From: a virus
Reading direction: 5' to 3' (one strand)
DNA length: 64,000 nt
Virus record (IMG/VR): IMGVR_UViG_3300008517_000034
Coordinates: 1-64,000 of that record
Shown: in pieces, positions 2,134 through 55,152 of the stretch
How positions within the stretch are numbered: position 1 is the stretch's first letter
Layout: every line of letters starts with the position of its first letter
Made by a program: the position numbers and the translations under genes
The notes under the pieces: generated by a model
The model's database searches: none
What the model saw: the letters and a program-made list of their open reading frames with translations, nothing else
Told to the model about the DNA's origin: nothing

Positions 2134-2576
2134 TTAAAAGCCTCCACTAGTTCTTTATAATTTTTCATAATATAGATACAATCTCCCCTGGTTAGTTCTA
2201 CCTCAAAAATCTTATCAGCTGCTTCTATTACATTTGCGATATTAAACATATTGGTTATGCCTGACTTCTGCACTTTTACATAGGCCCTAAATTTTTCCTT
2301 ACTTACCGCCTTTATTTTCTTCTCTCTTCTTTTAAATTTTTTTAAAAAATCTCTATCTATCTCGCTAGCAGAAACTCCGATTATCGCCGGGTCTTCTGGC
2401 CAGCTAAATTCGTAGTGCTTCTTTAATCTCTTCATAGTATCTTTTACATAAGGATCTCCACCGGTCAAGAAGGCCAGCAAAGAATCAGATTCCACATAAC
2501 AAAAGGTGAATCCTAAATTTTTTAGGGTCTCGTAGAGTTCTTCTCTCTCTTTTCTCCAGATCAAAGCAGTGTACAT
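2130..2576 (-). CDS. Hypothetical protein with C-terminal DUF5049-like domain
   Basis: VQKSGITNMFN...YIMKNYKEL; paralogous segment in 5493..5801. Confidence 0.6.
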   Translation of the reverse strand: MYTALIWRKEREELYETLKNLGFTFCYVESDSLLAFLTGGDPYVKDTMKRLKKHYEFSWPEDPAIIGVSASEIDRDFLKKFKRREKKIKAVSKEKFRAYVKVQKSGITNMFNIANVIEAADKIFEVELTRGDCIYIMKNYKELVEAFK

Positions 2577-2621
2577 CTAACCGGGTCTCTTCTTCACCTC
2601 TTATAAATTGGGTAAATTTTC

Positions 2622-2876
2622 TCATTTTAAAAAATCCTCCACAATGTTTTGGTCCTGTCTCTTGCAGGCAGCAACGATTTTAGTATCTTTTAAGCCTACA
2701 TTGATTATTCTAGCAACCTCAAATTCTGATAATGCTACGATACACTGACTTTTCCCAGAATCATAAGTTAATTTTAACCAGAAAATGCCCTCAGTATTAT
2801 CCACCGTCAGAATACCTTTAACCTGTGAATATTCTGGTATCTTTTTACCTCTGGTTATTATTTTCATATATTCCAT
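2622..2876 (-). CDS. Hypothetical protein
   Basis: ORF track; AAGGAG RBS. Confidence 0.55.
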   Translation of the reverse strand: MEYMKIITRGKKIPEYSQVKGILTVDNTEGIFWLKLTYDSGKSQCIVALSEFEVARIINVGLKDTKIVAACKRQDQNIVEDFLK

Positions 2877-3720
2877 CTCCTTTAGTTCCTAATATATAAT
2901 CTACCGCCTTCTGTGCTTGGGCCGAGGCAGAGATTATTAAGGTCGAATCATTGTTGAGCCTCTTTAGCCAGCCCTGGATGTAGGCAGCAGAATTATTGAT
3001 AGTCTTATTCTCTATTCTGCATAAGGCACAGAGGAAGCTCGCTCCTATCTCCGCGACCAGTTCCTCTTTGCTATATTTTTCACTACTAAAACCATTTCCC
3101 TTAGAATCTTTTCTATTGAGTCTTGTCTCGTGTCCGGTCGAGTGGATCAGCTCGTGAAATTTAGAAGAATAATATTTCTCCATATCTTTAAACTCTTTCT
3201 TTGAAGGGATTTTTAATATATCTAATTTAGGATTATAAGCAGCCCTGTTTCCACCTTCCTTAATGGCCGGTGGGTTGGGCATATTAAGAAGAATGTCCTC
3301 GCATTCTTTTGACTGTTTACCATTGCCATAGTCCGGTAACGGGATAGTAGTTTGATCCAGATTGAATATATTGTAGTATCTTAGAGCAAACCTTAACTCT
3401 TTCTTCGGTTCTCCGGTCTCTTCGTTGATCACAAGATTCCCGTCTTTATCCCGGGCCTCTACTTCATACCGCCTAAAAAATATCACCATGTCGGCCCGGC
3501 TCCCCTTCTTTACACTCTCTCTAAGATTCCTGACCTGCCTGAAGGTCACAAATTCACTTGATTGGTGTTCCTCCATGCTGAGCAGTAAAAGATTTATGCC
3601 GTGGTATCCTCGTTTGGTTATGTAGTTTCGTAGGCCTATCCAGGGCTTCTCCCAGGGAATTATCCCTTGGTTTAGCTTATCGATAATCTTTTGGGTTATG
3701 ATCTTATAAACTTTATTCAC
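2845..3720 (-). CDS. ardC: ArdC-like antirestriction protein (ssDNA-binding domain + zincin metallopeptidase)
   Basis: IPWEKPW, YHGINLLLL, FNLDQT, HELIHSTGH, YSKEELVAEIGA, SAAYIQGW motifs. Confidence 0.9.
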   Translation of the reverse strand: MNKVYKIITQKIIDKLNQGIIPWEKPWIGLRNYITKRGYHGINLLLLSMEEHQSSEFVTFRQVRNLRESVKKGSRADMVIFFRRYEVEARDKDGNLVINEETGEPKKELRFALRYYNIFNLDQTTIPLPDYGNGKQSKECEDILLNMPNPPAIKEGGNRAAYNPKLDILKIPSKKEFKDMEKYYSSKFHELIHSTGHETRLNRKDSKGNGFSSEKYSKEELVAEIGASFLCALCRIENKTINNSAAYIQGWLKRLNNDSTLIISASAQAQKAVDYILGTKGDGIYENNNQR

Positions 3721-36265: not shown

Positions 36266-37000
36266 TTATGATTCTAGATATTGGAGTTCCCCAGTATAAG
36301 AAAGGAACTTAATTTGAAGAGGAGAAAATCCATTTTCATTTTCTCTTCTGAAATGTTTTAATTCTTCCTCTGCCTTCATATGAGAAGATCGTGTAAGAGT
36401 AATAAGATAAGAATCAAGATTTTTTCGAATTTTATACCAAGGAATAATATGATGATTGCATAAATTATCTATTTTCCTAGTTAAAAAACATTTATATCCA
36501 TCTCTTTCTAAAATTCTTTTTCTGGCTTCTTCCCATTCTCTAGTATGACGAAAATCATAACCTGTCCACCGACAATGATTTTTTCCTCTATTAAATTCAT
36601 GATAACATTTTAACGAACAAAATTGCTTGTTATAATATTTTATCCTGCTCTTTCTTCGTTCAATTTTTTTTCCGCAATTAAAACAAATGACTTTAATCCA
36701 ATTATTTTTCTGCTTAGACTGGTAATAACATCTAAATGAACAAAACTCTGCCGTTCCTTTCCTGCAAGGGGAGACATAAAACTTCTTTCCACAAGTAAGA
36801 CATCTTTTGGGTATTTTTTTAGATATAGCTCTTATTATCTTTTTATAATGGACTTCCTTCCTAACTTTAAGTCCGAGAGAGCAAGCCTTTCCGTAGATAG
36901 AACTTCTAGTATATTTCTTCAATAGAGGCTTAATTTCTGGACCTTTATCGCTGTATTCTCTTCTTAATAAATTTTCATCTTCTTCCGGCCATCTCCTCAT
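36266..37000 (-). CDS. HNH homing-type endonuclease with Zn-ribbon repeats
   Basis: FCS..C repeats; ILERDGYKC...HHIIP...LITL...H. Confidence 0.8.
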   Translation of the reverse strand: MRRWPEEDENLLRREYSDKGPEIKPLLKKYTRSSIYGKACSLGLKVRKEVHYKKIIRAISKKIPKRCLTCGKKFYVSPCRKGTAEFCSFRCYYQSKQKNNWIKVICFNCGKKIERRKSRIKYYNKQFCSLKCYHEFNRGKNHCRWTGYDFRHTREWEEARKRILERDGYKCFLTRKIDNLCNHHIIPWYKIRKNLDSYLITLTRSSHMKAEEELKHFRRENENGFSPLQIKFLSYTGELQYLES

Positions 37001-40000
37001 TTATATGCCTCTCTTCCAAATTGTTTAACTTCATTTGCGGGAACTGGGTAATAACTACCTTTCTGTGCTTTATGTTCAATTGGGTCCATAGGTAAAGGAT
37101 TATCACTGCATTTCCAGAACCACCATCTATTATTCTTTCCCGCCTTAAAACACCTAATAATGTATCTCCCGTTTAATATTTCTTTATCTTTACATCTATC
37201 AGGATAAAAAAAGTATTCGTGTACGTCTTCTCTTTGTACACCAGCTTTTACCTTTCCAAGATAGACAGCTTGCATGAAGGCATCTTTATAAGCAGTTGCC
37301 CCTACTTCTCCAGCTTTTATGATATATGATTTATCAAGAAGTGCGAGATCGGCTACTATTTTTGCTCCTTTAGCATTTAGTAATGCCTCTTTTACTTCCG
37401 ATTTTTTCAATTCTCTAGTAGGTTCCTCTGCACTAGGTTTAACAATACAGAGTCCTTTATCTACATTACCAGTTTTTGGATCTCTTTTTCCCTTTAAGGC
37501 ATTCAAATAAGCATCGATTGAATCTTCAGTTAGGACCCATTGAATAAGTTTATTCTTAAATTTCATTCTGATATCACAATGCATACTATGATCCTCTAAT
37601 AGTTTAGCAAGAGATATTTTTTTCTGTTTCCATTGTTTAGTCTCATTCGGTTCTAATCCTCTAAAGTGGAATTGAGCCCACATCATTCCCTCATCATAAT
37701 CCGGATAAAATTCTTTAGGTAGTGGTTCATTTTCCTTGGCGTATATCTTATATATTTCTTTGGGAATCTTCCCTCCCTCTATGCTTATCTTAATATCATC
37801 TTTAATTCCCTTTTCCACTAGGGCCTCTCTCCGTGGAGTGAACTCAGAAAGCCTCTCCAATACAAACATTTTGTCCGGTACATTCTTTTCCGGAACCGGT
37901 TGTAATACTACACTCACATAAGCTTTATAATAGGGGTATTTAGGATCTTCAGTCTCGTAGCTATTGACATCTTCGCTGGCTACTCTTAGTATCGAACCTA
38001 TCACTACATCCTGTTTCGTATTATCCGACTTCCCTATATGGTTATAAAACTTCTCCCTAAATTCTATTACTGCCTTCTTATCTTTTCTGCTTATGGCCTC
38101 TGCCCACTCTTTATCAATGGGTCCCACAGCTAATTCGTAATTCCAATTCCCGGTCTTCTTTCCTTCTCTGATAATTTCCTTTTCCCCCACTACCAGGCAA
38201 TCAATCTCGTACTTCTCCTTCCATTTGCAAGCACCATGGTCTTGAGGCATTTCGTAGGGGGTGTTGAGTAATTTAATCATTACTCCCTCGGCAATATGTT
38301 TGGGATAAGGACCACCTCTATGGGCATAGCCCATCATCTTATCTTTAACCTTTTCAACTTGCTTAAGATCCTCTAAATCCACAATATAAGATAAGGCTTC
38401 TTTCTGTAAATTAGTTGAACTTCTAACAAAATGAACGTGCTCAGAATCTTTGAATTTGCTGAGCAGTTCCTTACGCTCTTTTAGAGGCCAATCTTTGATA
38501 TTTTTCCCATCATATTCCACAATATCAAAAATGTAAATATGAGCTTTCTTACTAGCCTCGGTGGGGTCGAACTTCCCGTTTAAAAGTGCATTAGTGACTA
38601 CCCTGTGTAAGCATTCATTCTTTTCCTTATCAATCATTATTATTTCAGAATCCCCCACAAAATCTTCCTTCATCTTCTTAAGCTCTTCTACCTGCCAGGG
38701 TAGTCTCTCGGTCTTGATGGGAGAGCCTTTAATATCCTCTGGATCACTCATTATAATTACATCTTTGCCCTTCTTTACAATTTTCGTCCTCATTCCATCA
38801 AACTTGGCTTCGACAATTGCTTTTCCTTTCTGAAAATGGGGAGTATTTTTAAGGTCCTCAAAGGTAAATATTCGATAGGCCGGTTTATTTAAGCCCCATT
38901 TTTCTCTCTTCTCAAAATCCTTCTCTTCTAAGATATCACCATCATATAAGATCTTACCATTCCATATCTTAAGCCCGGCATTAACCTTCTCTTTATGCTT
39001 TAAAATATCCTTTCTTAAATTAGTGAGATATATTACCTTCGGTTTCAATTCCTCTGCTAATTGCAGGAGAGAGAGAAAAGAAAGTTTCCCTCTTTCTCTG
39101 TCATCCTTTTCATAATCTCCTACTCCACAAATCCAGATAGTCCCTTGTATCAGGTCTTTCTGTGCCTTCCCTAATTCTAAGAACTCGGGCAAGATCGATA
39201 TCTTCTTTTTTCCTACATCTAATCTCAAACCTATAGAAGGTGTCCCGACTGCCGGGGTAGTCTTGATCGGTATAATCCCCAAGCCATCAATCTTTAGTGG
39301 TTTTAAGAATAGATGCGTATCTTCCCTCTTGGGTAGCCGGTCAAATATTGCTCCTACAGTATAGACCGGGATATCCTTATATTCATTAAGATATTCCCAG
39401 TGGTCCTTATCGGCTTGAGTTATAATTATAAAGTCTAAATCCTCTTTTACCTCTTTCTGGTGTACTGCTGGGTCGATAAGAATCCTTTTATCTTTGTGAC
39501 GTATAAGCAGAGAGAAGTGTTTGCCCTGTGGGGAATTAAGCTGGGCCATGGTGCCGAGGACCTGGATAAAACCGGTCTTCGGTATATCATCTTTCTTTCT
39601 TACTATCTCAATCTTCTCCTTAGGCCTTAGCACTTTTTCAAATAGTGGGATGCATGAATCCCATTCAGTCAGATCATAAATAAAATTCAGCTTCTTATTT
39701 ATCTGTTTCTCGAAAAGTTTAGTAATTGCTGATTCTAACTTTGGATTCTGCTCATCCCTAATAAGTATATTTATATCCGGTTGGTCTCTTAGGGATTTCT
39801 TCGAATCTCTTACAATACTAATATATTCAGGATCGAGCATTATCGAACCTAAACTGGACATATCTATTCCCAATTCTTCTTTCTTAAACACTATATCGTC
39901 TATGCTGGTCTCAACATGATTTATTTTTCTCTTATGCATCTCCCTGACCAGCAATTGATACTTCCCGAGAAAATCACCTCTTTTGACATCTAATTTAGGT

Positions 40001-40122
40001 TTCGGTTTCTCAAAATATTTTTCCCATAGCTGTGAAAAGCGTAGGTCCAGAGAATACAGTTCTATATTAGGTGCTTTCCTCAGGTTTAATTTTGTCATCT
40101 CTTCTATTCTCAATATTTTCAC
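36997..40122 (-). CDS. Multidomain ATP-dependent DNA ligase (degenerate NTase + degenerate MBL + ligase + LigD-type phosphoesterase)
   Basis: EAKFDG, DSEI, IFDIV, EGVMIK, KWK ligase motifs; VLGT..ILIDP..ITQADKDH MBL fold; QFH...HCDIRM..W phosphoesterase-like. Confidence 0.85.
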   Translation of the reverse strand: MKILRIEEMTKLNLRKAPNIELYSLDLRFSQLWEKYFEKPKPKLDVKRGDFLGKYQLLVREMHKRKINHVETSIDDIVFKKEELGIDMSSLGSIMLDPEYISIVRDSKKSLRDQPDINILIRDEQNPKLESAITKLFEKQINKKLNFIYDLTEWDSCIPLFEKVLRPKEKIEIVRKKDDIPKTGFIQVLGTMAQLNSPQGKHFSLLIRHKDKRILIDPAVHQKEVKEDLDFIIITQADKDHWEYLNEYKDIPVYTVGAIFDRLPKREDTHLFLKPLKIDGLGIIPIKTTPAVGTPSIGLRLDVGKKKISILPEFLELGKAQKDLIQGTIWICGVGDYEKDDRERGKLSFLSLLQLAEELKPKVIYLTNLRKDILKHKEKVNAGLKIWNGKILYDGDILEEKDFEKREKWGLNKPAYRIFTFEDLKNTPHFQKGKAIVEAKFDGMRTKIVKKGKDVIIMSDPEDIKGSPIKTERLPWQVEELKKMKEDFVGDSEIIMIDKEKNECLHRVVTNALLNGKFDPTEASKKAHIYIFDIVEYDGKNIKDWPLKERKELLSKFKDSEHVHFVRSSTNLQKEALSYIVDLEDLKQVEKVKDKMMGYAHRGGPYPKHIAEGVMIKLLNTPYEMPQDHGACKWKEKYEIDCLVVGEKEIIREGKKTGNWNYELAVGPIDKEWAEAISRKDKKAVIEFREKFYNHIGKSDNTKQDVVIGSILRVASEDVNSYETEDPKYPYYKAYVSVVLQPVPEKNVPDKMFVLERLSEFTPRREALVEKGIKDDIKISIEGGKIPKEIYKIYAKENEPLPKEFYPDYDEGMMWAQFHFRGLEPNETKQWKQKKISLAKLLEDHSMHCDIRMKFKNKLIQWVLTEDSIDAYLNALKGKRDPKTGNVDKGLCIVKPSAEEPTRELKKSEVKEALLNAKGAKIVADLALLDKSYIIKAGEVGATAYKDAFMQAVYLGKVKAGVQREDVHEYFFYPDRCKDKEILNGRYIIRCFKAGKNNRWWFWKCSDNPLPMDPIEHKAQKGSYYPVPANEVKQFGREAYK

Positions 40123-45959: not shown

Positions 45960-47297
45960 TTAGGTCATGCTTTTTAATTTAACTGCTTTTTTCCCAGTAA
46001 ATTTTTCCCATCTGGCTAAGATTACCTCTCCATAAATTGGCTCTATCTCTATTGCTCGGCAACTCCGCTTCATTATCTCGCAAGCAATGATGGTAGATCC
46101 CGAACCGCAAAAAGGCTCGGCTATTATTCCTCTCCGCGGAGACAATATTTTAATATAGGGAACTAAAATCTGAATCGGTTTCTTTCCTAAGATGATATTT
46201 TCTACTCTTCCCTTTCCAGTCTGTTCTGCTGACCAGGTTATGTGATCAGTTATCTTAGACCAGCGGGTTTTTTTCCTTCGATCGAAAGAGCTGTCACCTT
46301 TCTGGCCATAGATTATAACCTCATAGGAATCCAAAAATTTCTGGCCTTCTTCTTTAAGATAATTGTCTAATTCTTCCTCAAATTTTTCATTTAGCTTTAC
46401 ATCTCCATTATCTCCCAAAACCATTACATCATAACGATTAGGAAAAGTTTTCTTTCCTATATATGATTGATACCTCTTCTCAGCTTTCCAGATTATCATA
46501 TTTTTAATCTTCCAATATTTTTCTATCGATAGCCATAATCTAACAATATTTTTCCATTTCTCGAATACCATTATGTTTGAACCTTTGCTATTCTGATAGC
46601 CAATTGCTATCGATAACCAACTATCATAGTCTTTAGGAACTTTTTTACCTTCAACACTTAGATAGGAAAATTTCTTATGGCCAAAGCTTTTTATATTGAA
46701 ATAAGGGGGATCGGTGAATAAAAAATCAAATCTTTCTTCTCCAAATAATTCATTCCAGCCATTTTTATCCGTACAATCGCCAATAAGTAATTTATGTTCT
46801 CCCAGTTTCCACAAATCTCCGCTCTTAACTCTCTTAGCATCTTCTTTAATGAATTTCTCTAATTCTTTATCTATGTCAAATTCTTCATTAACATCGAGAC
46901 CAAAAATATCATCCAGCTCTTCCCTGCCAAATCCCACATTCATTAGCAGTTTTTCATCAAAATTAGTCAGCATGTCATAATCCCAGGAGCCTAAATTCTT
47001 ATTCTCTCTCAAGTTTGCCTCTCTTAATTCTTCGGGAGTCAGTTCCCTATTAGGAATCCTTACATCAATTTCTTCCTCTCCTCTACCTAACAATTGCAAT
47101 ATCTTTAATCTTTGATGGCCTGATACAATAACATCATCAGTGTTTACTACTGGAATCGACATTAAATTAAACCGTTTTAAGCTCTCTTCCAGGTCCTCTT
47201 TCTGCTTTAGAGTCATTTGACGGGGATTAGAATCATAGGGAATTAACTTATTTATTATTCGCTTCTCTGTATGCCATATTAGTTTTTTATTATTCAT
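45960..47297 (-). CDS. ParB-like N-domain + N6A/N4C DNA methyltransferase
   Basis: PYDSNPR...SGHQR; GD.W.LG.H; TDPPY; EPFCGSGST. Confidence 0.9.
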   Translation of the reverse strand: MNNKKLIWHTEKRIINKLIPYDSNPRQMTLKQKEDLEESLKRFNLMSIPVVNTDDVIVSGHQRLKILQLLGRGEEEIDVRIPNRELTPEELREANLRENKNLGSWDYDMLTNFDEKLLMNVGFGREELDDIFGLDVNEEFDIDKELEKFIKEDAKRVKSGDLWKLGEHKLLIGDCTDKNGWNELFGEERFDFLFTDPPYFNIKSFGHKKFSYLSVEGKKVPKDYDSWLSIAIGYQNSKGSNIMVFEKWKNIVRLWLSIEKYWKIKNMIIWKAEKRYQSYIGKKTFPNRYDVMVLGDNGDVKLNEKFEEELDNYLKEEGQKFLDSYEVIIYGQKGDSSFDRRKKTRWSKITDHITWSAEQTGKGRVENIILGKKPIQILVPYIKILSPRRGIIAEPFCGSGSTIIACEIMKRSCRAIEIEPIYGEVILARWEKFTGKKAVKLKSMT

Positions 47298-47311
47298 TTT
47301 TCCCCTCTCCT

Positions 47312-48109
47312 CTAAAACAAAGATTCTGGAATAGCATTAATTCTTTTTCTCGCTATTTCACAGTATTCTGGACTTATATCAATTCCAATAAATTTCCTAC
47401 CTAATTTTTTTGCCATTTTACAAGTGGTTTCACTTCCACACATCGGGTCTAAAACTATATCTCCTTTATTGCTCCAAGAATATATGTGGTCTTCTGCCAA
47501 TTGATCGGGGAATATGGCAGGGTGCCCATATGCTATCTTGTCCTTAGTAGATTTCATATAGCCTCCATCATATAACCAAACATTGCCCCAATTACTCTCA
47601 TCTTTATATGTAACATTTTTCGTTTCTTTCATGTCACCATTTTTTTGTCTATGAGTCATGCTTCTTGTGAAAGCACCATATATATTCTTTCTCTTTAGCA
47701 AATTCAAAGTCCCTGGCTTCCCTTTAGACAATATAAACATATATTCGAATATTTGGTTATATCTTTTTGATTGTGGGAATGGTAGATTATTCTTTAAATA
47801 AATCATAGTATCATATAGCTTAAAACCAACTTTTTTAGCGTAAAGAGCATGTCTGAAAGAATTGCCCGATTCACTACCATTTATTGTTTGGTCTCCGACT
47901 ACCCAAACCAATGTCCCTCTCATTTTTGTGACTCTAAATAATTCTTTTATTAGCTCCTTATAATCAAATAAAAAACCTTTATAATCTCTTAAATCATCAT
48001 AAGGAGGACTTGTGATTATTAAAGCAATCGCGCCATTAGGGATATCTTTAATAACTTCCAAATGGTTACCACATATTATTCTATTTATGAAATCTTCAGG
48101 CCATTTCAT
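47312..48109 (-). CDS. Beta-class DNA methyltransferase (SPPY, probable N4C)
   Basis: TSPPY, HPAIFP, DPMCGSETT (G-to-E change in motif I). Confidence 0.85.
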   Translation of the reverse strand: MKWPEDFINRIICGNHLEVIKDIPNGAIALIITSPPYDDLRDYKGFLFDYKELIKELFRVTKMRGTLVWVVGDQTINGSESGNSFRHALYAKKVGFKLYDTMIYLKNNLPFPQSKRYNQIFEYMFILSKGKPGTLNLLKRKNIYGAFTRSMTHRQKNGDMKETKNVTYKDESNWGNVWLYDGGYMKSTKDKIAYGHPAIFPDQLAEDHIYSWSNKGDIVLDPMCGSETTCKMAKKLGRKFIGIDISPEYCEIARKRINAIPESLF

Positions 48110-49735
48110 TTAGAATATCTCCTGCTGAACTTTGGCAATTCTTCTATTAGCCATATCAATATATTCCTGTTTTATCTCAATACCGATAAACATTTTTCTT
48201 TGTTTTACGGCCACCAACGCGGTAGTCCCCGCTCCCATAAATAGATCTAAAACTATACCGCCTTCAAATCCTGCATTGCAACCACAGTCGGTATAACCAA
48301 TTTCTTTTCTTACTCTTCTTTTCCCAGTTAACAATGTACTTGTAGGGCTAACTTTTTGTATTTGTTCTGCCGTTATACTATTATTACCCCCACATATTTC
48401 ATATTCGCCAGTATCTTTATATATCTTTACTCTTGCCTTCCCACACTTCTTACAGACAAATTCAGGACATCCAGCTTTAATTGGTATCTCAATTAGCCCC
48501 TCCGGATATACCGCAAAGTGGGCTTCTGGGAAGGGCTGAGTCGGTATAGCCCAGACAGAACGTTTATTGCGACCTTGAGGATTTGGTCTAACGGCTCCTT
48601 CAACTAATTTAGATGTTTTGCCTAATTTCATTGTTTTTTCATAAATTGTCTTTTTTTCCGTCCTCGATTTTTGTATATCACCACCCCATCTATTAAGAGG
48701 ATAATCATATTTATCAAACTGCTGTTCAAACCAGTAATCGTGGCCAGACCAGAGGGAATATTTTACCTTTTTTAAACCTTTACACCTTGGGCATATCTTA
48801 TTTTTTATATTTTTCTTTTCTCCATTACTTGCCTTAAATTGAGGGCAGCCTTCCCCTTTTCTCATGACGTCCCGGGTTCGATAATTAAAATAATTTTTAT
48901 TAGAGCAGGCAGGGCAGGGTCTCCATTCCCAATCTTTAGCCTCTATCCCTTTAGTGCCTAATGGCTTTTTATCTACACATTCCAGAGTTTTCTCATTGGT
49001 CCAGAATATAGCTTTATTGTTTTTAGTAAAGAAAAATAGATATTCAAAATCTACTGTAAACCTATCATTTGCACTCGAGGGCATACAATTTTTTTTATAC
49101 CAGATTATTGTATTTCTCTTGATCCAGCCCCGGTTAATCATTTCTATGGAGAAGCGATAGGGTATATCTAATAAACATTTCGCATACTGTCTAGTAATTT
49201 TTTGATTCCCTTTGGTAGCTCCCATTTCTAAAGTCTTATAGCCTAAATTTTTTGTATCTTTTGTATGTCCGGAAGCATTACCACTGCCACCGTAGGAATC
49301 GCCTATATTTATAAAACAAGTCCCGTCCTTCCTTAATACCCTTTTTACCTCGTCAAAGATATCACACAGATGTTTTATATATAATTCAAAGGTTGGCTCG
49401 AGGCCCAGGCTACCCCGCCAGGCTCCGCATTTAGAGCAAAACCCTGCTTTTGCCTTACCGAAACCATGTAAATTTTTCCTATATTGTGGATTACCCAATG
49501 TGCCACCATCTAAATTTTGCCTATTTTCATGTAACAACTTTGAATCATATTCTCTAAAATCGTGTTTACAATCTTTATCTCCATCCCAAATAACTGATTC
49601 GATCCCATAATCTCTGAGACCCCAATAAGGCGGGGAGCATGCACAGCAATTAACTGATTCACCAGGAATCTCCTTTAAAATTTCCAGTGCATCTCCACAT
49701 ATAATCTTATTAATATAATGATTAATATAATTCAT
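48110..49735 (-). CDS. Beta-class DNA methyltransferase with Cys-rich insertions
   Basis: SPPYWGLRDY, RNKRSVW, HFAVYP, DLFMGAGTT. Confidence 0.9.
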   Translation of the reverse strand: MNYINHYINKIICGDALEILKEIPGESVNCCACSPPYWGLRDYGIESVIWDGDKDCKHDFREYDSKLLHENRQNLDGGTLGNPQYRKNLHGFGKAKAGFCSKCGAWRGSLGLEPTFELYIKHLCDIFDEVKRVLRKDGTCFINIGDSYGGSGNASGHTKDTKNLGYKTLEMGATKGNQKITRQYAKCLLDIPYRFSIEMINRGWIKRNTIIWYKKNCMPSSANDRFTVDFEYLFFFTKNNKAIFWTNEKTLECVDKKPLGTKGIEAKDWEWRPCPACSNKNYFNYRTRDVMRKGEGCPQFKASNGEKKNIKNKICPRCKGLKKVKYSLWSGHDYWFEQQFDKYDYPLNRWGGDIQKSRTEKKTIYEKTMKLGKTSKLVEGAVRPNPQGRNKRSVWAIPTQPFPEAHFAVYPEGLIEIPIKAGCPEFVCKKCGKARVKIYKDTGEYEICGGNNSITAEQIQKVSPTSTLLTGKRRVRKEIGYTDCGCNAGFEGGIVLDLFMGAGTTALVAVKQRKMFIGIEIKQEYIDMANRRIAKVQQEIF

Positions 49736-49761
49736 TAAAAAATGCCTTAAACGAATAATAT

Positions 49762-51165
49762 TTAAAATAAAACTGCTTCTATCGCTCTTAATCTACACTT
49801 TGCAATTTCTACATATTCCTTCTCAATCTCAATGCCGATATACTTTCTGCTCGTTTCTTTACAGGCCATCAAAGTAGTTCCGCTACCACAGAAAGGATCT
49901 AATACTACTCCGCCCGTCGGAGTTTTAGTCAGTGTGCAAAGGTATTTCATGAGTGCTAAAGGCTTAACGGTGGGATGGTGGTTTTTGCTCTTTAGAGATT
50001 TATTGGGCTTACCTGTTTGTCCATGAACACCTTTTTGTCTTAGTGATATATCTCCTTTGATCTCAACTTCTTCCAATCTTTCGCACCCTCTATTCCGTTC
50101 GGCTTTACTTGCCTTCGCACAGTAGAAGAAGCGGGAAGCAGAGCCTGAATCATTTACTCCGATAGCCGTAGGATAACCATCTCTTACTATTCCGTTCATA
50201 TAGATTTCACTTTTAATTTTTCCTCTTCTTGAATTTGGACGATATGATGTCCCTGTATTCGGAAATAACCCTACCACTTCATCAGAACCATCATGTATTA
50301 CATTTGCAGGAAAGCGACCTTTATTAATATTAGAATTTAATAATCCATAACCAAAAGTTGAACCAAAACAAGTTTTTTTATATTTAACATTATCCGATAA
50401 TTGCTTGTTATGATGCCCGTCTTTAAAATCATTATTATTTTCATAAGGTATCCTTCCCCCATCTATATTCAATCCTGTCACTTTCCACTTCAAAGCATTA
50501 TTAGCATAACTACCCTCGTTAGGTTTCATTGCCACTAGTATGGGTTCATATGCAGGTTTTAGCCCATGTGATTTCCAGCCGTTCCAAAGAGTAGCTTCGG
50601 GGGTTGCAGATTCTTTTATTGGTTGTTTGCCACCCTTAATTCCTATTACTTCTTTACCAAATACTGCTTCACTACTATAACCAGCAGACTTTCTATTTTC
50701 TCTACCAAAGGGTTCTTGATAATCAATTACTTTTCTAAATCCTTCCCATTCTTTCTTAAATTCCTCTCGTGTCGGCTTCCTGCCTAATTTTTCTTCTAAC
50801 TTCTTCCTGCATTTATCTTTATCTAACATCTGGCTGATATCCGTTGCCTTCGGAAAGCCTGACCCATAGAGCCACATGATACAATCTTTTAAGATAAATC
50901 CAGCATCCTCAACATTAACCGCCATCCTATGTTGTGTTCTACTTCCTGCAAAGATTAAAGCAGTTCCGCCGGGCTTTAATATCCTTAAACATTCCTGCCA
51001 TGTCTCGATTGAAGGGACGTCATAATCCCATTTTTGTCCCATAAATTTTAGTCCATAAGGCGGATCGGTAATTATGGTGTCTATGCAATTGTCAGGAAAG
51101 TCCTTCATTACTTCAAGACAATCACCATGTATTAATTTATTTATAAAATCTTCTGGATATCTCAT
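49762..51165 (-). CDS. Beta-class DNA methyltransferase (DPPY)
   Basis: TDPPYGL.FM, GRFPAN, HPTVKP, DPFCGSGTT. Confidence 0.9.
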   Translation of the reverse strand: MRYPEDFINKLIHGDCLEVMKDFPDNCIDTIITDPPYGLKFMGQKWDYDVPSIETWQECLRILKPGGTALIFAGSRTQHRMAVNVEDAGFILKDCIMWLYGSGFPKATDISQMLDKDKCRKKLEEKLGRKPTREEFKKEWEGFRKVIDYQEPFGRENRKSAGYSSEAVFGKEVIGIKGGKQPIKESATPEATLWNGWKSHGLKPAYEPILVAMKPNEGSYANNALKWKVTGLNIDGGRIPYENNNDFKDGHHNKQLSDNVKYKKTCFGSTFGYGLLNSNINKGRFPANVIHDGSDEVVGLFPNTGTSYRPNSRRGKIKSEIYMNGIVRDGYPTAIGVNDSGSASRFFYCAKASKAERNRGCERLEEVEIKGDISLRQKGVHGQTGKPNKSLKSKNHHPTVKPLALMKYLCTLTKTPTGGVVLDPFCGSGTTLMACKETSRKYIGIEIEKEYVEIAKCRLRAIEAVLF

Positions 51166-51334: not shown

Positions 51335-51769
51335 TTATTCCCATCCGGGAATTAACCTGCTATATTTTTCTATTTCTTTATAGCTTAGTATTTTCTCGAA
51401 ATCTATCCCTAGATCATCACACAAAAATTTAATCATCTCGCCATTAGCCTTATCCCTCGCGTATTTATCAGGAATTATAAATTGTAGCTTAGCAAATTCT
51501 TTTGGATAATATTTTTTAAACCGCCTTAGTTTGGTTTTATCGCCGGGTCTAAACCATCCCTTACATTCTACCCATAAATCTATTATAGGCAGGTAAAAGT
51601 CTGGCTTATAATACCGGTTACCGCGTTTGATAGTTTTAAATTCGAATTCTTTTGGTTCATAGATATATTCAATTTCGGTAAGTTTATAATATCTGGCAAT
51701 ATTCGCCTCCATCTTACTCCGGAAATATTGTTTTAGATCTTTTCGGTAACCGCCTTTGGCTACGTGCAT
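51335..51769 (-). CDS. PD-(D/E)xK nuclease (T7 endonuclease I/resolvase-like)
   Basis: FRSKMEA, YEP, YKPDF, VECKG motifs. Confidence 0.75.
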   Translation of the reverse strand: MHVAKGGYRKDLKQYFRSKMEANIARYYKLTEIEYIYEPKEFEFKTIKRGNRYYKPDFYLPIIDLWVECKGWFRPGDKTKLRRFKKYYPKEFAKLQFIIPDKYARDKANGEMIKFLCDDLGIDFEKILSYKEIEKYSRLIPGWE

Positions 51770-52641
51770 TTTCCACCTCTCAATTTAATAAAATCTTCCA
51801 ATTCACAAAATTTATACAATCTTTTATTTACCCACCTTGCAAATTCCTTAGTCCTTCTATCTACATTTTCATAAATCATTATGAAGGGATCTACCCCCAA
51901 ATTTAACAATTCATTAAACCGGTAAAGGTCCTCTTCAAAAGTAGTATCAAATCCGCATAAAACAAATACCATTATTCTATATGGCTTGATCCCCGCCTTG
52001 AATATTATCCTCAGACCCTCTTTAAGCTCTTTCTCATAATCCATCAGGTCCCAGGCAAAGTGTATTTGCTTCAGATGTTTTACTTCAGCCAATAGCTTGG
52101 CGTTCTCCTTATTTACAAGTCTTATATCAAGTCCCTGGTTAAAATCCATTCTCCAGCCTTTATTAATATACTTTTGTAATTTTTTAATATAAGAGGGTAA
52201 GGCCAGGAAATTATTATCTAATAAAACTACTACATTAGTCTTTGGATTTAGAAATTCCTCCACTTCTGCATGCTCCCGGATCTTACCTTCTTTCTCCGGT
52301 ACTATACAAAATTTACAATTTCTAATACAGCCCCGGGTAGTAAAGCCTAGAGAATAATCAAGGTTATAAAGAGTATAATCGGGCTTTATATGTTCAATAT
52401 CATAAGGCAAAACAATTTTTAAATTAAATCCTGATCCACCCATAATGCTATTTTCTGGTATATATCCTTCCTCGATATTATGCTTTGAAAATATCTTTGA
52501 AACATATACCCTGTCGTATGTCTTTTCCATCAATGGTTTATATTTTTCTATCTGATCCCCAAAACTTTTATGCCAAGCAGATATTTTCATTAAGGCTAAA
52601 TTGTGATATTTTGAATCAATATCGAATAAACCGATTTTCAT
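51760..52641 (-). CDS. Radical SAM protein (start revised to MKIGLFDID)
   Basis: TRGCIRNCKFC (CxxxCxxC), NLALMKIS, LLDNN, FNQGLD. Confidence 0.85.
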   Translation of the reverse strand: MKIGLFDIDSKYHNLALMKISAWHKSFGDQIEKYKPLMEKTYDRVYVSKIFSKHNIEEGYIPENSIMGGSGFNLKIVLPYDIEHIKPDYTLYNLDYSLGFTTRGCIRNCKFCIVPEKEGKIREHAEVEEFLNPKTNVVVLLDNNFLALPSYIKKLQKYINKGWRMDFNQGLDIRLVNKENAKLLAEVKHLKQIHFAWDLMDYEKELKEGLRIIFKAGIKPYRIMVFVLCGFDTTFEEDLYRFNELLNLGVDPFIMIYENVDRRTKEFARWVNKRLYKFCELEDFIKLRGGKCT

Positions 52642-52796
52642 AGTCATATCTTGCCCAATATTTTTAATAGTGCAATAATTTCCATACCAAATGCTGTTAT
52701 AAAAAGCACCCACCAGGCCCAATCGTTAGTCTTTTCAGCTTTTTTAACCGGACTACTAAATCCTTTAATCCTTTCTTCGCCTATCTTTAATTTCAT

Positions 52797-54791
52797 CTAA
52801 TCACTTTCCCTTTTATTTTTTAATAATAAATCTAAAATACTATTTTTATCGATGCTTTCAGGCGAGAGATCGATATCTGCTTTTTCTTTATCATCAACAA
52901 GTTCAGCACCTGATTTTGATAAAATATCTTTCAACTCGATACTATTCTGGTAAAAATTTACAAGATATTTTCTACTATTTTCGGCGAATTCCGAATTAGA
53001 TGAGGTGATTGATCTACCGATTGATGTCTCGGCAAAATAGAATCTGCTCTCCTTCATTGTGGTAATCAATAATCCTAGTATTTTTTGTTTTTGGCTGATT
53101 TCAGATTGGACAACCGAAACAATATTATTGGGATTAACCATATAATTATTTCCAAAATCTTTAGCTTTTTCTTTGGCAACGATTATTTTAAGGGGAACTT
53201 TTATTTCAGCATTGTAATTGTAGTAATTTAAGAAAAGGATAAAATTATCCTTTAATTGTCTTTTCACATAAAATAATTCTGTCGCTCCGATAGGTGCATT
53301 AGTGATATCCCCTGAATATAGAATATTACCTTCTTCATTTCTATAACCGGCATCCCAGCCATATTTCCTATCAGAAGAAACTAGGGAAAGATCTAAATCT
53401 ATCATATAAGGCTTAATATTTTCCCAATAGACTCCGACAATCATATCCTGGGGAACAGAGATATAAGTTCCCGATGGCAAATTCCCGGTAAATTGTTTTT
53501 CTGTCGCCGGTAAGCTGTAATTTATATAATCAGGGATATAAATTTTCTTACCCCTTACATTTTTTTTAATATCCTCTGTAATAGAATCTAAGACAATAGC
53601 TAAGACCTTTCTTGCTCTTTCTTTTCTTCTAAAATAGAAATCAGTAGCAAACGATTTTCCGTTCCGTATACGATACAAAATCGAGTCTATGTCTTTTGTT
53701 CTAAATTTCAAAGCATAGGCCAACCTTATTTTCCTAAAGATATTGACCCTCCCTAATTCACTTTCTAATTTATCCATATCTATTATTTTGCCTTTTTTAA
53801 TTTTAGCAGTGACTTCATTAAGATAGTCTTCTGGCATAGGCTTGTGATAATGGATTGCCAATTTTCTTATTTTATTAATGATAGTTTTTAGTTCTCGATT
53901 GGTCCTAAAAGCAAGAAAGATTGGTTTAAAGCGATAGAATATTTCCGCTAATCTTTTTAATCCGTATTTTCTACCATAATCCTTAAAAATTTTAATAACC
54001 TTAATGTTCTTCCCTTCCTTTATTTCCCCTATCAATTCCTTAGATTTTATCAATAGTGTTTCATCCGTTGCAGTATAGACAACATATCTTAAAAACTCGA
54101 CAGGATTTTCAGGAACCAAATCCAAATAGTTATATAAAATTATTCTGACTTCTTTATTCTTTATATCTTTTATTTCCTTTTCATTTATATCTAAAAATAA
54201 GGCCACATCTACAACATCGTTTATGGTATCTTCTTTTAAGGCAATCCCGGAATTAAGCAATTTTAATAATTTATCTTTAAGCTCCTGTTTGGTATATCCT
54301 TTTATGACTACCAGTTTTATTTCATCTATATTTATTTCAGGGATATCTAATATTTCTTTTGGAATGTAAATATAATCTTTATCACGAATTTTATCTGTAT
54401 GAAAATCTTCCAAACCTGATATTCTTTCCGATAAATTATCTACTCCCCAATTCTCCAAATACTCTTTTTGAAACATATATCTCCCGGGATCTTTCTTGCC
54501 GTAAGTTGTAATATAATGAGCAATCTGTTCTGTAATCAATTGCTCTATATCAGCTTCCTTTACCTTCTTCCAGGACTTATGAAAAGAAGCATTTACTTTC
54601 TCGCTGGTTATCCCGAAAACTTCTTCAACCAATTTTATTAATTCGTCATAATTGGAATAATTGTAGATTACCTCCGGAGAAAATATAAAACCCCTTTTGA
54701 TTGTTTTTTTTAGCAGATCTTTTGTTGGTGATTTCTTGTGCTTTGCTTTTATTGGTAAGGCCTTAAATAGTCTGATAGTCGCTTTACTCAT
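52797..54791 (-). CDS. Large helical protein with C-terminal TerD-like domain (possible TROVE/Ro-like RNA-binding protein)
   Basis: GVYW...DLDLS...YSGDITNAP.GATE.F (TerD-like); N-terminal ~430 aa helical and basic. Confidence 0.6.
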   Translation of the reverse strand: MSKATIRLFKALPIKAKHKKSPTKDLLKKTIKRGFIFSPEVIYNYSNYDELIKLVEEVFGITSEKVNASFHKSWKKVKEADIEQLITEQIAHYITTYGKKDPGRYMFQKEYLENWGVDNLSERISGLEDFHTDKIRDKDYIYIPKEILDIPEINIDEIKLVVIKGYTKQELKDKLLKLLNSGIALKEDTINDVVDVALFLDINEKEIKDIKNKEVRIILYNYLDLVPENPVEFLRYVVYTATDETLLIKSKELIGEIKEGKNIKVIKIFKDYGRKYGLKRLAEIFYRFKPIFLAFRTNRELKTIINKIRKLAIHYHKPMPEDYLNEVTAKIKKGKIIDMDKLESELGRVNIFRKIRLAYALKFRTKDIDSILYRIRNGKSFATDFYFRRKERARKVLAIVLDSITEDIKKNVRGKKIYIPDYINYSLPATEKQFTGNLPSGTYISVPQDMIVGVYWENIKPYMIDLDLSLVSSDRKYGWDAGYRNEEGNILYSGDITNAPIGATELFYVKRQLKDNFILFLNYYNYNAEIKVPLKIIVAKEKAKDFGNNYMVNPNNIVSVVQSEISQKQKILGLLITTMKESRFYFAETSIGRSITSSNSEFAENSRKYLVNFYQNSIELKDILSKSGAELVDDKEKADIDLSPESIDKNSILDLLLKNKRESD

Positions 54792-54810
54792 TTCTTTACC
54801 CCTTTCTTTA

Positions 54811-55018
54811 AGGCGGGTAGTATTTTGGTAAGCGGGGGAATACCCCGCTAGTTATTTTGATAGGAACTACCTATGCCTCTATTTTTATTTTTAAAATAAG
54901 GCGAGTGGTAATTACACCAATTGAATTATAGGAACCACTTATGCCTTATAATTTTATTTAATTTCTTACATTGAGGCGGGTAGTAAAACGCTGGTTTTAT
55001 AGGAACTACCTATGCCTC
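54811..55018 (-). ncRNA. Array of three structured RNA repeats
   Basis: Units 54811-54878, 54896-54949, 54973-55018: AGGC-AUA-RGURGU-UCCUAU-(variable)-ACYACY-C-GCCU, with compensatory base changes. Confidence 0.75.
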
Positions 55019-55152
55019 TATTTTTAAGAAATAATTAAAGTCTTTATTATTTTCTTTATTAAATTTTTCTATAGATTCTATAAATCCAGATTCTTTTTTT
55101 TGACTTTTTTAAAAACCCAATACATTCTTTCGTATTCATATCAATTTCTCCT

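Follow-up and report, generated by a model that had tools for sequence, protein, structure and literature searches.

A handle-bearing RNA array beside the gene of a TerD-fold protein in a marine sediment virus: a probable Ro60-independent ribonucleoprotein of Y-RNA-like plan

Three similar RNA units stand in a row directly upstream of P0001, the gene for a protein of 664 amino acids (aa), on the minus strand of a viral DNA stretch of 64,000 nucleotides (nt) from marine sediment, positions 1 to 64,000 of the IMG/VR record IMGVR_UViG_3300008517_000034 (hereafter the window, which is most of the 75.9-kb record), and the question they raise is whether they only control the gene beside them or form, together with its product, a particle of their own. 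The answer considered probable here is a Ro60-independent ribonucleoprotein (RNP), in which a fixed RNA handle carries a variable cargo, possibly with self-regulation at the ribosome-binding site; the binding and the function in this answer are what we infer. The original prediction, made from the letters alone, had described three units with an AUA/C internal loop, an invariant UCCUAU and a variable part of 14, 18 or 38 nt, with compensatory pairs in the inner stem, a covarying outer stem and an end about 20 nt before the ATG. Every one of these sequence statements was borne out in units A-C (Table 1): the inner stem of unit B holds two compensatory changes relative to that of units A and C (GGUAGU/ACUACC), and the distance from unit C to the ATG, at 54791, was measured as 18 nt.

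Table 1. Coordinates of the RNA units, the leader and the partner gene in the window; R1 is the covariance model built from the units
Feature	Position	Strand	Description	R1 match
Handle RNA unit A	54973..55018	-	GAGGC-AUA-GGUAGU-UCCUAU-14 nt-ACUACC-C-GCCUC; outer stem GAGGC/GCCUC; 14-nt part with small AAAAC/GUUUU hairpin	54967-55023, 59.5 bits, E 7e-16
Handle RNA unit B	54896..54949	-	AUAAGGC-AUA-AGUGGU-UCCUAU-18 nt-ACCACU-C-GCCUUAU; inner stem AGUGGU/ACCACU; outer stem AUAAGGC/GCCUUAU; 18-nt loop	54892-54952, 67.7 bits, E 2e-18
Handle RNA unit C	54810..54879	-	GAGGC-AUA-GGUAGU-UCCUAU-38 nt-ACUACC-C-GCCUU; outer stem GAGGC/GCCUU, one G-U pair; 38-nt part with G+C-rich hairpin GCGGGG-UAUUC-CCCCGC	54804-54884, 63.3 bits, E 4.5e-17
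Leader, unit C to start codon	54792..54809	-	purine-rich ribosome-binding site (AAAGAAAGGGGUAAAGAA)	
Partner gene P0001	52797..54791	-	664 aa; without Pfam, PHROG or PDB sequence match	
N-terminal mostly helical region, residues 1-415	53547..54791	-	conserved basic and aromatic motifs FHKSW, HYxTTYG, RFKP, FRKIRLAYAL, YRIRNGK	
TerD-fold beta-sandwich, residues ~445-610	52962..53459	-	invariant D465, D467, G478, W479, D495, E505	

The array is singular in its genome. An 18-nt core of the units (GGCATARGTRGTTCCTAT) occurs three times in the window, each time in the array, even when three mismatches are allowed, with 0.2 copies expected and none of 100 shuffles reaching three, and R1 confines the handle units to this site in both the window and the whole 75.9-kb record. 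The fold energy of the array beats that of shuffled sequences (z = -3.7). Searches of Rfam with 2 kb and with 271 nt of the locus gave no match to the array at an expectation value (E) <= 10 beyond chance level. The rows for HIV pol SL, SNORD50, mir-5886 and PK-PYVV were at that level, and a weak minus-strand match of RAGATH-12 (RF03149) to a unit of one relative (E 0.77), recurring neither in the window nor in a search of eight loci, was also ascribed to chance. CRISPR-like arrays and RNA anti-CRISPR repeat mimics were set aside too, the units of one array differing in their stem with compensation and the variable part lying inside the hairpin and not between repeats.

The secondary structure was assessed in two alignments of units. 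The first, comprising 21 units from the window and six related viral loci, was made with MAFFT and not fitted to the model; both helices hold in 91% of its cells, and 10 of the 13 pairs vary on both sides. In the second, of 134 distinct units from related loci fitted to R1, the inner helix is 99.5% paired, five of its six pairs covary, and one pair takes all four Watson-Crick types (AU 47, UA 32, CG 26, GC 26); the covariation score of 0.625 was reached by none of 500 shuffles, which score 0.229, and slid partners give at most 0.21. The covariance model, proposed earlier as a check, and the covariation score have extended the covariation well beyond the two compensatory pairs visible in the window. 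The helix cells further hold 31 G-U or U-G pairs and 4 A-C or C-A pairs, and this excess, with the bias of the units to the strand of the gene, indicates an RNA read from that strand. The repeats could instead act as DNA, namely as iterons or sites for a DNA-binding protein, in replication or packaging, as would suit tandem intergenic elements within a phage replication/early module. However, compensatory changes keep the hairpin as its sequence varies, with G-U tolerated and A-C not, all 284 matches of R1 in viral and cellular loci are on the gene strand, the tRNA-like cargos of relatives (see below) are RNA features, and invariant loop nucleotides and linkage to the gene would be left unexplained; a role as DNA is held to be extremely improbable.

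Fourteen positions of the handle are invariant or nearly so, namely the closing C-G of the outer stem, the A-N-A facing its lone C, the G-C and U-A pairs with which the inner helix ends, and, in the apical loop, a 5' UCCU and a 3' U, with the consensus C-ANA-NNNNGU-UCCU ... U-ACNNNN-C-G. Since the inner helix has a constant length of six pairs, two conserved patches are held at a fixed spacing, from which we infer the signature of a protein-docking site. A masking of the Shine-Dalgarno sequence by the invariant UCCU was considered and rejected: UCCU is also kept in units far from gene starts and in Bacteroidota loci (for instance L282), and Bacteroidota largely do without initiation led by Shine-Dalgarno sequences.

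The linkage of the units to the gene supports their standing as a conserved structured RNA tied to one protein family. Of 81 viral loci with a gene for a related protein (39-80% identity), 79 contain units recognised by R1, 180 in all and one to six per locus, and the two others are cut at the 5' end of the gene; all 180 are on the gene strand, 170 upstream of the gene and 10 downstream. A cellular search gave 335 confirmed stretches in assemblies of many bacterial phyla and of archaea, large chromosomes included, and among the 80 loci kept, 71 contain 104 units, again without exception on the gene strand. Four of the nine cellular loci missed (L227, L236, L238 and L247) are explained by a permuted form of the unit, which is invisible to R1, and one locus keeps two units although its protein is down to 29% identity. 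The model found none in 99 control loci that match only a loose pattern; a scan of viral contigs with that loose DNA pattern had returned 118 stretches, and only L046 proved real among the 100 loci tested with R1. Clustering of the open reading frames (ORFs) within 3 kb revealed no conserved protein neighbour, the most frequent one reaching 7 of 82 loci in viruses and 4 of 80 in cells, and the RNA is thus the only constant companion of the protein. The array, as was to be checked according to the original prediction, does accompany the gene in relatives with variable copy number and variable inserts.

The same distribution bears on the explanation that the units are protein-independent hairpins, punctuating the processing of phage early or tRNA transcripts or stabilising them, with the gene a neighbour by chance. 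The many copies in tRNA arrays and between genes would agree with it; yet a stabilising hairpin has no need of 14 invariant nucleotides in loops and helix ends, the units stay beside the gene in about 150 of 161 loci of phages, bacteria and archaea while the other neighbours change, and in the window and the 75.9-kb record they occur at this site only. Such hairpins are considered very improbable.

The protein itself belongs to a family of at least 1439 clusters at 50% identity, whose members are annotated only as "hypothetical protein". Neither Pfam, PHROGs, the PDB sequence profile nor the ESM Atlas gave a match for it, and the family profile found no PDB chain at E <= 10. The AlphaFold model (predicted local distance difference test, pLDDT, 93.3; predicted template-modelling score, pTM, 0.91) resolves a C-terminal beta-sandwich of TerD type, so that the TerD-like motifs noticed in the sequence were upheld by the fold, and the comparison of the protein with TerD, named beforehand as a check, ended in a match of fold. 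The N-terminal residues 1-415 are proposed as the candidate RNA-binding part; when this region was folded alone, Foldseek found no match and no convincing known fold. The Foldseek rows for botulinum/NTNH proteins are noise, with a template-modelling score < 0.1 and a root-mean-square deviation > 30 A. Among the predicted viral protein structures of BFVD, full-length look-alikes are present in the Campylobacter phages IBB35 and CP21, the Lactobacillus phage LpeD and an uncultured siphovirus; no longer fused forms of the protein were found, which is weak evidence.

The variable part of the unit, referred to here as the cargo, is a simple loop or hairpin in the window, where the tRNA-like module of some relatives is absent from all three units. 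In 12-16 of 169 distinct units of relatives, the inserts, of 75-140 nt, form a permuted tRNA-like module in the order anticodon-like stem, variable loop, T-arm (GGUUCGAnUCC), sealed acceptor-like hairpin of 6-7 base pairs (bp), U-A, D-arm (AGCUCAGUUGGuAGAGC) and return strand. A permuted tRNA mimic is the defining feature of YrlA (PMC4201824), and the Rfam model of YrlA (RF02553) matches the tRNA-mimic units of relatives at 37-48 bits (E 1e-7 to 2e-4; threshold 69 bits), in an alignment that spans the tRNA-like part only and leaves the Ro-binding outer stems of YrlA unaligned to the handle. A second topology, in about 25 loci, has the handle as a closed hairpin (U-ACnnnn-C-GC-loop-GGC-AnA-nnnnGU-UCCU) that replaces the anticodon loop of a cloverleaf of normal order, with an acceptor stem of 7-9 bp, a D-arm and a T-arm. 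In both topologies, the handle is attached to the anticodon stem of a tRNA-like body. Thus, in Chryseobacterium defluvii (L282 2632-2760), a complete cloverleaf (7-bp acceptor, D-arm, T-arm) bears the handle hairpin as its anticodon loop, with RtcB on one side of it and three ordinary units on the other; such handle-bearing cloverleaves are not recognised as tRNA by ARAGORN. As to the simple cargos, that at 54896-54949 of the window and those of many relatives (L001, L002, L006, L133, L176) share a loose A-rich motif, ...(A)UCAUUGGNG(A)UA... and then AUU, and the short loops may therefore form recurring classes and not be free sequence. The suggestion that the units serve as guide RNAs gained no support.

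The surroundings of the gene in relatives point to tRNA as well. Of 60 viral loci, 17 have tRNA genes no more than 3 kb away, ten of them with 5-16 tRNAs on the same strand, and the tRNAs often abut the units or the stop codon of the gene. The gene of the cultured cyanophages S-CRM01 (g174) and S-CBWM1 (gp22) lies within a tRNA cluster, with units upstream, downstream or between tRNA genes, while in the gut phage Phass-1 five units are placed 1.3 kb downstream. In cells, the commonest neighbour is RtcB, confirmed by Pfam in at least 3 of 80 loci (L222, L227 and L282); the order in Chryseobacterium defluvii is RtcB, the handle-bearing cloverleaf, three units, the protein, RlaP and an R2K ATP-grasp protein, and in other loci a CCA-adding enzyme and/or RlaP adjoin the gene. 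RlaP adds nucleotides onto cleaved tRNA halves (2025 preprint, 10.64898/2025.12.29.696909). The window contains no tRNA according to ARAGORN and no RtcB or RlaP gene. Two further observations concern the loci of relatives. The annotated 48-aa reverse-strand ORF g173c of S-CRM01 (L283 2791-2937; NC_015569.1 132391-132537) overlies handle units found by R1 (2743-2976) and is probably not a real gene. In L004, a 229-aa ORF with a NUMOD3 motif, homing-endonuclease-like (2315-3004), stands between the array (1476-1704) and the protein gene, the array being now 1.3 kb from the start codon.

The position of the units relative to the start codon brings in the explanation that they are only cis-acting operators of the 5' leader, by which the protein would block its own ribosome-binding site, the repeats adding cooperativity and no free small RNA or particle being made. 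It draws on the co-orientation of array and gene, between which a terminator scan of the window, otherwise uninformative for promoters and terminators, placed no terminator on the minus strand, on the short distance from unit C to the ATG, and on the nearest unit being at most 40 nt from the start codon in about 55 of 77 viral loci (about 70%). It also agrees with a contig from an RNA library running from gene to array: contigs from two metatranscriptome runs cover the 5' end of the gene, as weak evidence in which carry-over of DNA is possible, and one, about 90% identical, extends over 54336-54968 and so begins in the gene and reaches units C and B. A contig of run X5 stops at 54813, close to where unit C has its 3' end, at a depth of 2 that gives no evidence of processing, and the parts of the window left uncovered in the RNA runs carry no meaning. 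However, 10 of 180 units are downstream of the gene, those of L156 and L198 exclusively so; others lie at a distance of 1.3-2.5 kb, either cut off by inserted genes or standing singly amid tRNA genes (L004, L145, 444-509 of L284 in S-CBWM1, Phass-1); and complete tRNA mimics and cloverleaves with acceptor stems of 7-9 bp make no sense as the cargo of an operator. Canonical Ro60 loci, moreover, share the layout of an upstream array, yet Y RNAs are known as free RNAs (PMC4201824). A purely cis-acting leader is therefore judged unlikely, and self-regulation may rather be an added property of the RNP: unit C ends 5-10 nt before the ribosome-binding site, so a bound protein could damp its own translation.

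In the RNP preferred here, the units would either be small handle RNAs with genes of their own or be cut out of the leader transcript, each folding into a fixed docking stem that carries an apical cargo free to vary, and the 664-aa protein would be the dedicated partner with each unit as one ligand. The helical domain may grip the two invariant patches of the handle six pairs apart, the TerD-fold domain may stand in for the vWA domain of Ro60, and the units may be released from the leader or from a tRNA-array transcript. The protein-RNA pair would then be a self-contained RNP that moves between phages, bacteria and archaea. Because of the tRNA-like cargos and the loci with tRNA clusters and RNA repair genes in relatives, the particle would most likely take part in the surveillance, repair or protection of tRNA or other RNA during infection, a role likened to that of Ro60 with YrlA. 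A further-reaching proposal, to which about an even chance is given, is that of a second, Ro60-independent class of Y-RNA-like RNPs, in which one docking stem common to all would offer exchangeable cargos, frequently whole tRNA mimics, to enzymes of tRNA processing, repair or host defence; in phages they could, for example, be decoys or repair platforms against anticodon nucleases.

Several points weigh against the handle-and-cargo RNP. The helical domain, proposed to bind the handle, has no recognised RNA-binding fold. The 134-unit alignment that gave the covariation was fitted to the model, although the unfitted MAFFT alignment of 21 units agrees with it. Contigs from RNA libraries cannot prove transcription or show the ends of small RNAs, and the closeness of the last unit to the start codon (<= 40 nt in about 70% of loci) is equally compatible with a leader that acts only in cis. 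RNA repair neighbours occur in only a few percent of the loci, and since the window has plain cargos and neither tRNA, RtcB nor RlaP, the link to tRNA repair rests on the relatives.

The remaining genes of the window are nearly all on the minus strand and include those for a portal protein, a ClpP-like protease, an endonuclease I-like nuclease, a radical-SAM protein and a ligase fusion. The last (36997-40122) is a 1041-aa protein that has, besides an ATP-dependent DNA ligase domain, a weak match to the metallo-beta-lactamase fold and, towards its C-terminus, a long stretch without assignment. Four consecutive genes with N6_N4 DNA methylase domains (445, 265, 541 and 467 aa) occupy 45960-51165, unusually many for one phage. 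Directly on the 3' side of the partner gene follow a 50-aa ORF without family match (52644-52796) and a gene for a 320-aa radical-SAM-like protein (51760-52722; CxxxCxxC; Pfam E 5e-6, below the cut-off), and neither is kept beside the module in other loci; the genes given here with coordinates are all on the minus strand.

To our knowledge, no well-known particle other than Ro60 with its Y RNAs contains a small RNA that combines a stem for docking to protein with a tRNA mimic. The present pair of RNA and protein would be a particle of Y-RNA type with a new handle and a new protein, of which the window holds a plain member with three simple cargos. If this is true, a second system has been built on the same plan from apparently unrelated parts, so that the plan itself would be under selection, and an independent route would open to what tRNA mimics do in RNA repair and in the conflict between phage and host. 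Rfam, moreover, would gain a large RNA family that it now lacks, and a role would be found for a large unannotated protein family; tractable hosts exist in the Synechococcus phages S-CRM01 and S-CBWM1 and in Chryseobacterium defluvii. The literature searched gave no paper connecting Y-like RNAs with this protein family or with this RNA motif, nor anything relevant on TROVE-like domains joined to TerD.

Three known systems are to be compared. Autoregulatory RNA operators, such as the targets of T4 gp32 and RegA, the MS2 coat operator and the leaders of ribosomal protein genes, resemble the locus in having a structured RNA just upstream of the ribosome-binding site of the gene for the proposed binder, whereas here there are multiple independent units with swappable cargos, whole tRNA mimics among them, some downstream or kilobases away in tRNA arrays. 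The TerD family (PDB 2kxt, 3ibz, 2qz7) has its fold in common with the C-terminal domain of the partner protein. However, neither P0001 nor 70 aligned family members match Pfam TerD at E <= 1, the acidic calcium loop GDN..G.GDDE of TerD reads SGDxTDAPxPxGASE in the consensus of the partner family, and the domain is fused to a 415-residue helical region and linked to RNA. Unlike in a Ter operon, no TerC, TerB or TelA is nearby, the examined neighbours in the window being methylases, a nuclease and the radical-SAM protein.

The closest likeness in plan is to Ro60 (Rsr; TROVE and vWA domains) with YrlA and YrlB (Rfam RF02553; Chen et al. 2014, PMC4201824), known also from the Ro60 of phage phiLo (PMC12135203). 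In both systems, the protein gene adjoins a single small RNA or a tandem row of several, encoded on its own strand, each RNA with a conserved bulged terminal stem and a variable module, which in many members is a permuted tRNA mimic composed of T-arm, sealed acceptor and D-arm. In both, a helical domain is followed by a domain of cation-binding type, RtcB is among the neighbours, and phages as well as bacteria are carriers. The original prediction of a Y RNA/Ro60-like system has accordingly stood as to layout, the permuted tRNA mimic of relatives and the neighbourhoods of tRNA and RNA repair genes, and has found no support as to kinship of the proteins, for which the sequence comparison with TROVE/Ro60 detected nothing.

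The last point bears on the explanation that the locus is the Ro60/Y-RNA system itself, diverged beyond recognition, with the helical domain as a remote TROVE ring and the units as true Y RNAs with a changed stem. Comparison of the helical-domain structures does give the longest aligned stretches with Ro60, at a TROVE likeness of background level, which leaves some chance of a very remote relationship. Against such divergence, the TROVE model (PF05731), which finds the Ro60 of D. radiodurans, B. thetaiotaomicron and Bythopirellula, matches neither P0001 nor, at E <= 1, any of 70 family members; vWA and vWA_Ro60 match neither P0001 nor the 70 members; the family profile reaches no PDB chain at E <= 10, although Ro60 chains have been solved; and hhalign of the partner family with the genuine Bythopirellula Ro60 gives a probability of 0.7%. 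The partner protein ends in a TerD fold where Ro60 ends in vWA. The Ro-binding stem of YrlA, encoded beside the Ro60 gene, has the motif GNCGAAN0-1G (PMC4201824), whereas the handle, with its C / A-N-A + C bulge / 6 bp / UCCU, lacks the GNCGAA motif, differs from such stems in both sequence and geometry, and does not align to them. The phage record has no TROVE gene, nor have four of the five cellular genomes with the partner protein. The fifth, the Bythopirellula chromosome, has both systems side by side: a true Ro60 (TROVE and vWA_Ro60) lies 1.8 kb from the module, convergent with it (L286 784-2433 (-), 2434-3219 (-); L221 3001-4875), and is preceded on its own strand, up to its ribosome-binding site, by at least five tandem YrlA-like units with the stem CGACUG...GGAGUACAU / CCUCGUCG, two of them matching YrlA at E 1e-7 and 5e-5, an array in which R1 finds no handle. 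Divergence from Ro60 is thus regarded as quite unlikely, and the Ro60-independent RNP is retained: the two systems are laid out in the genome by one grammar, each with a handle and a protein of its own.

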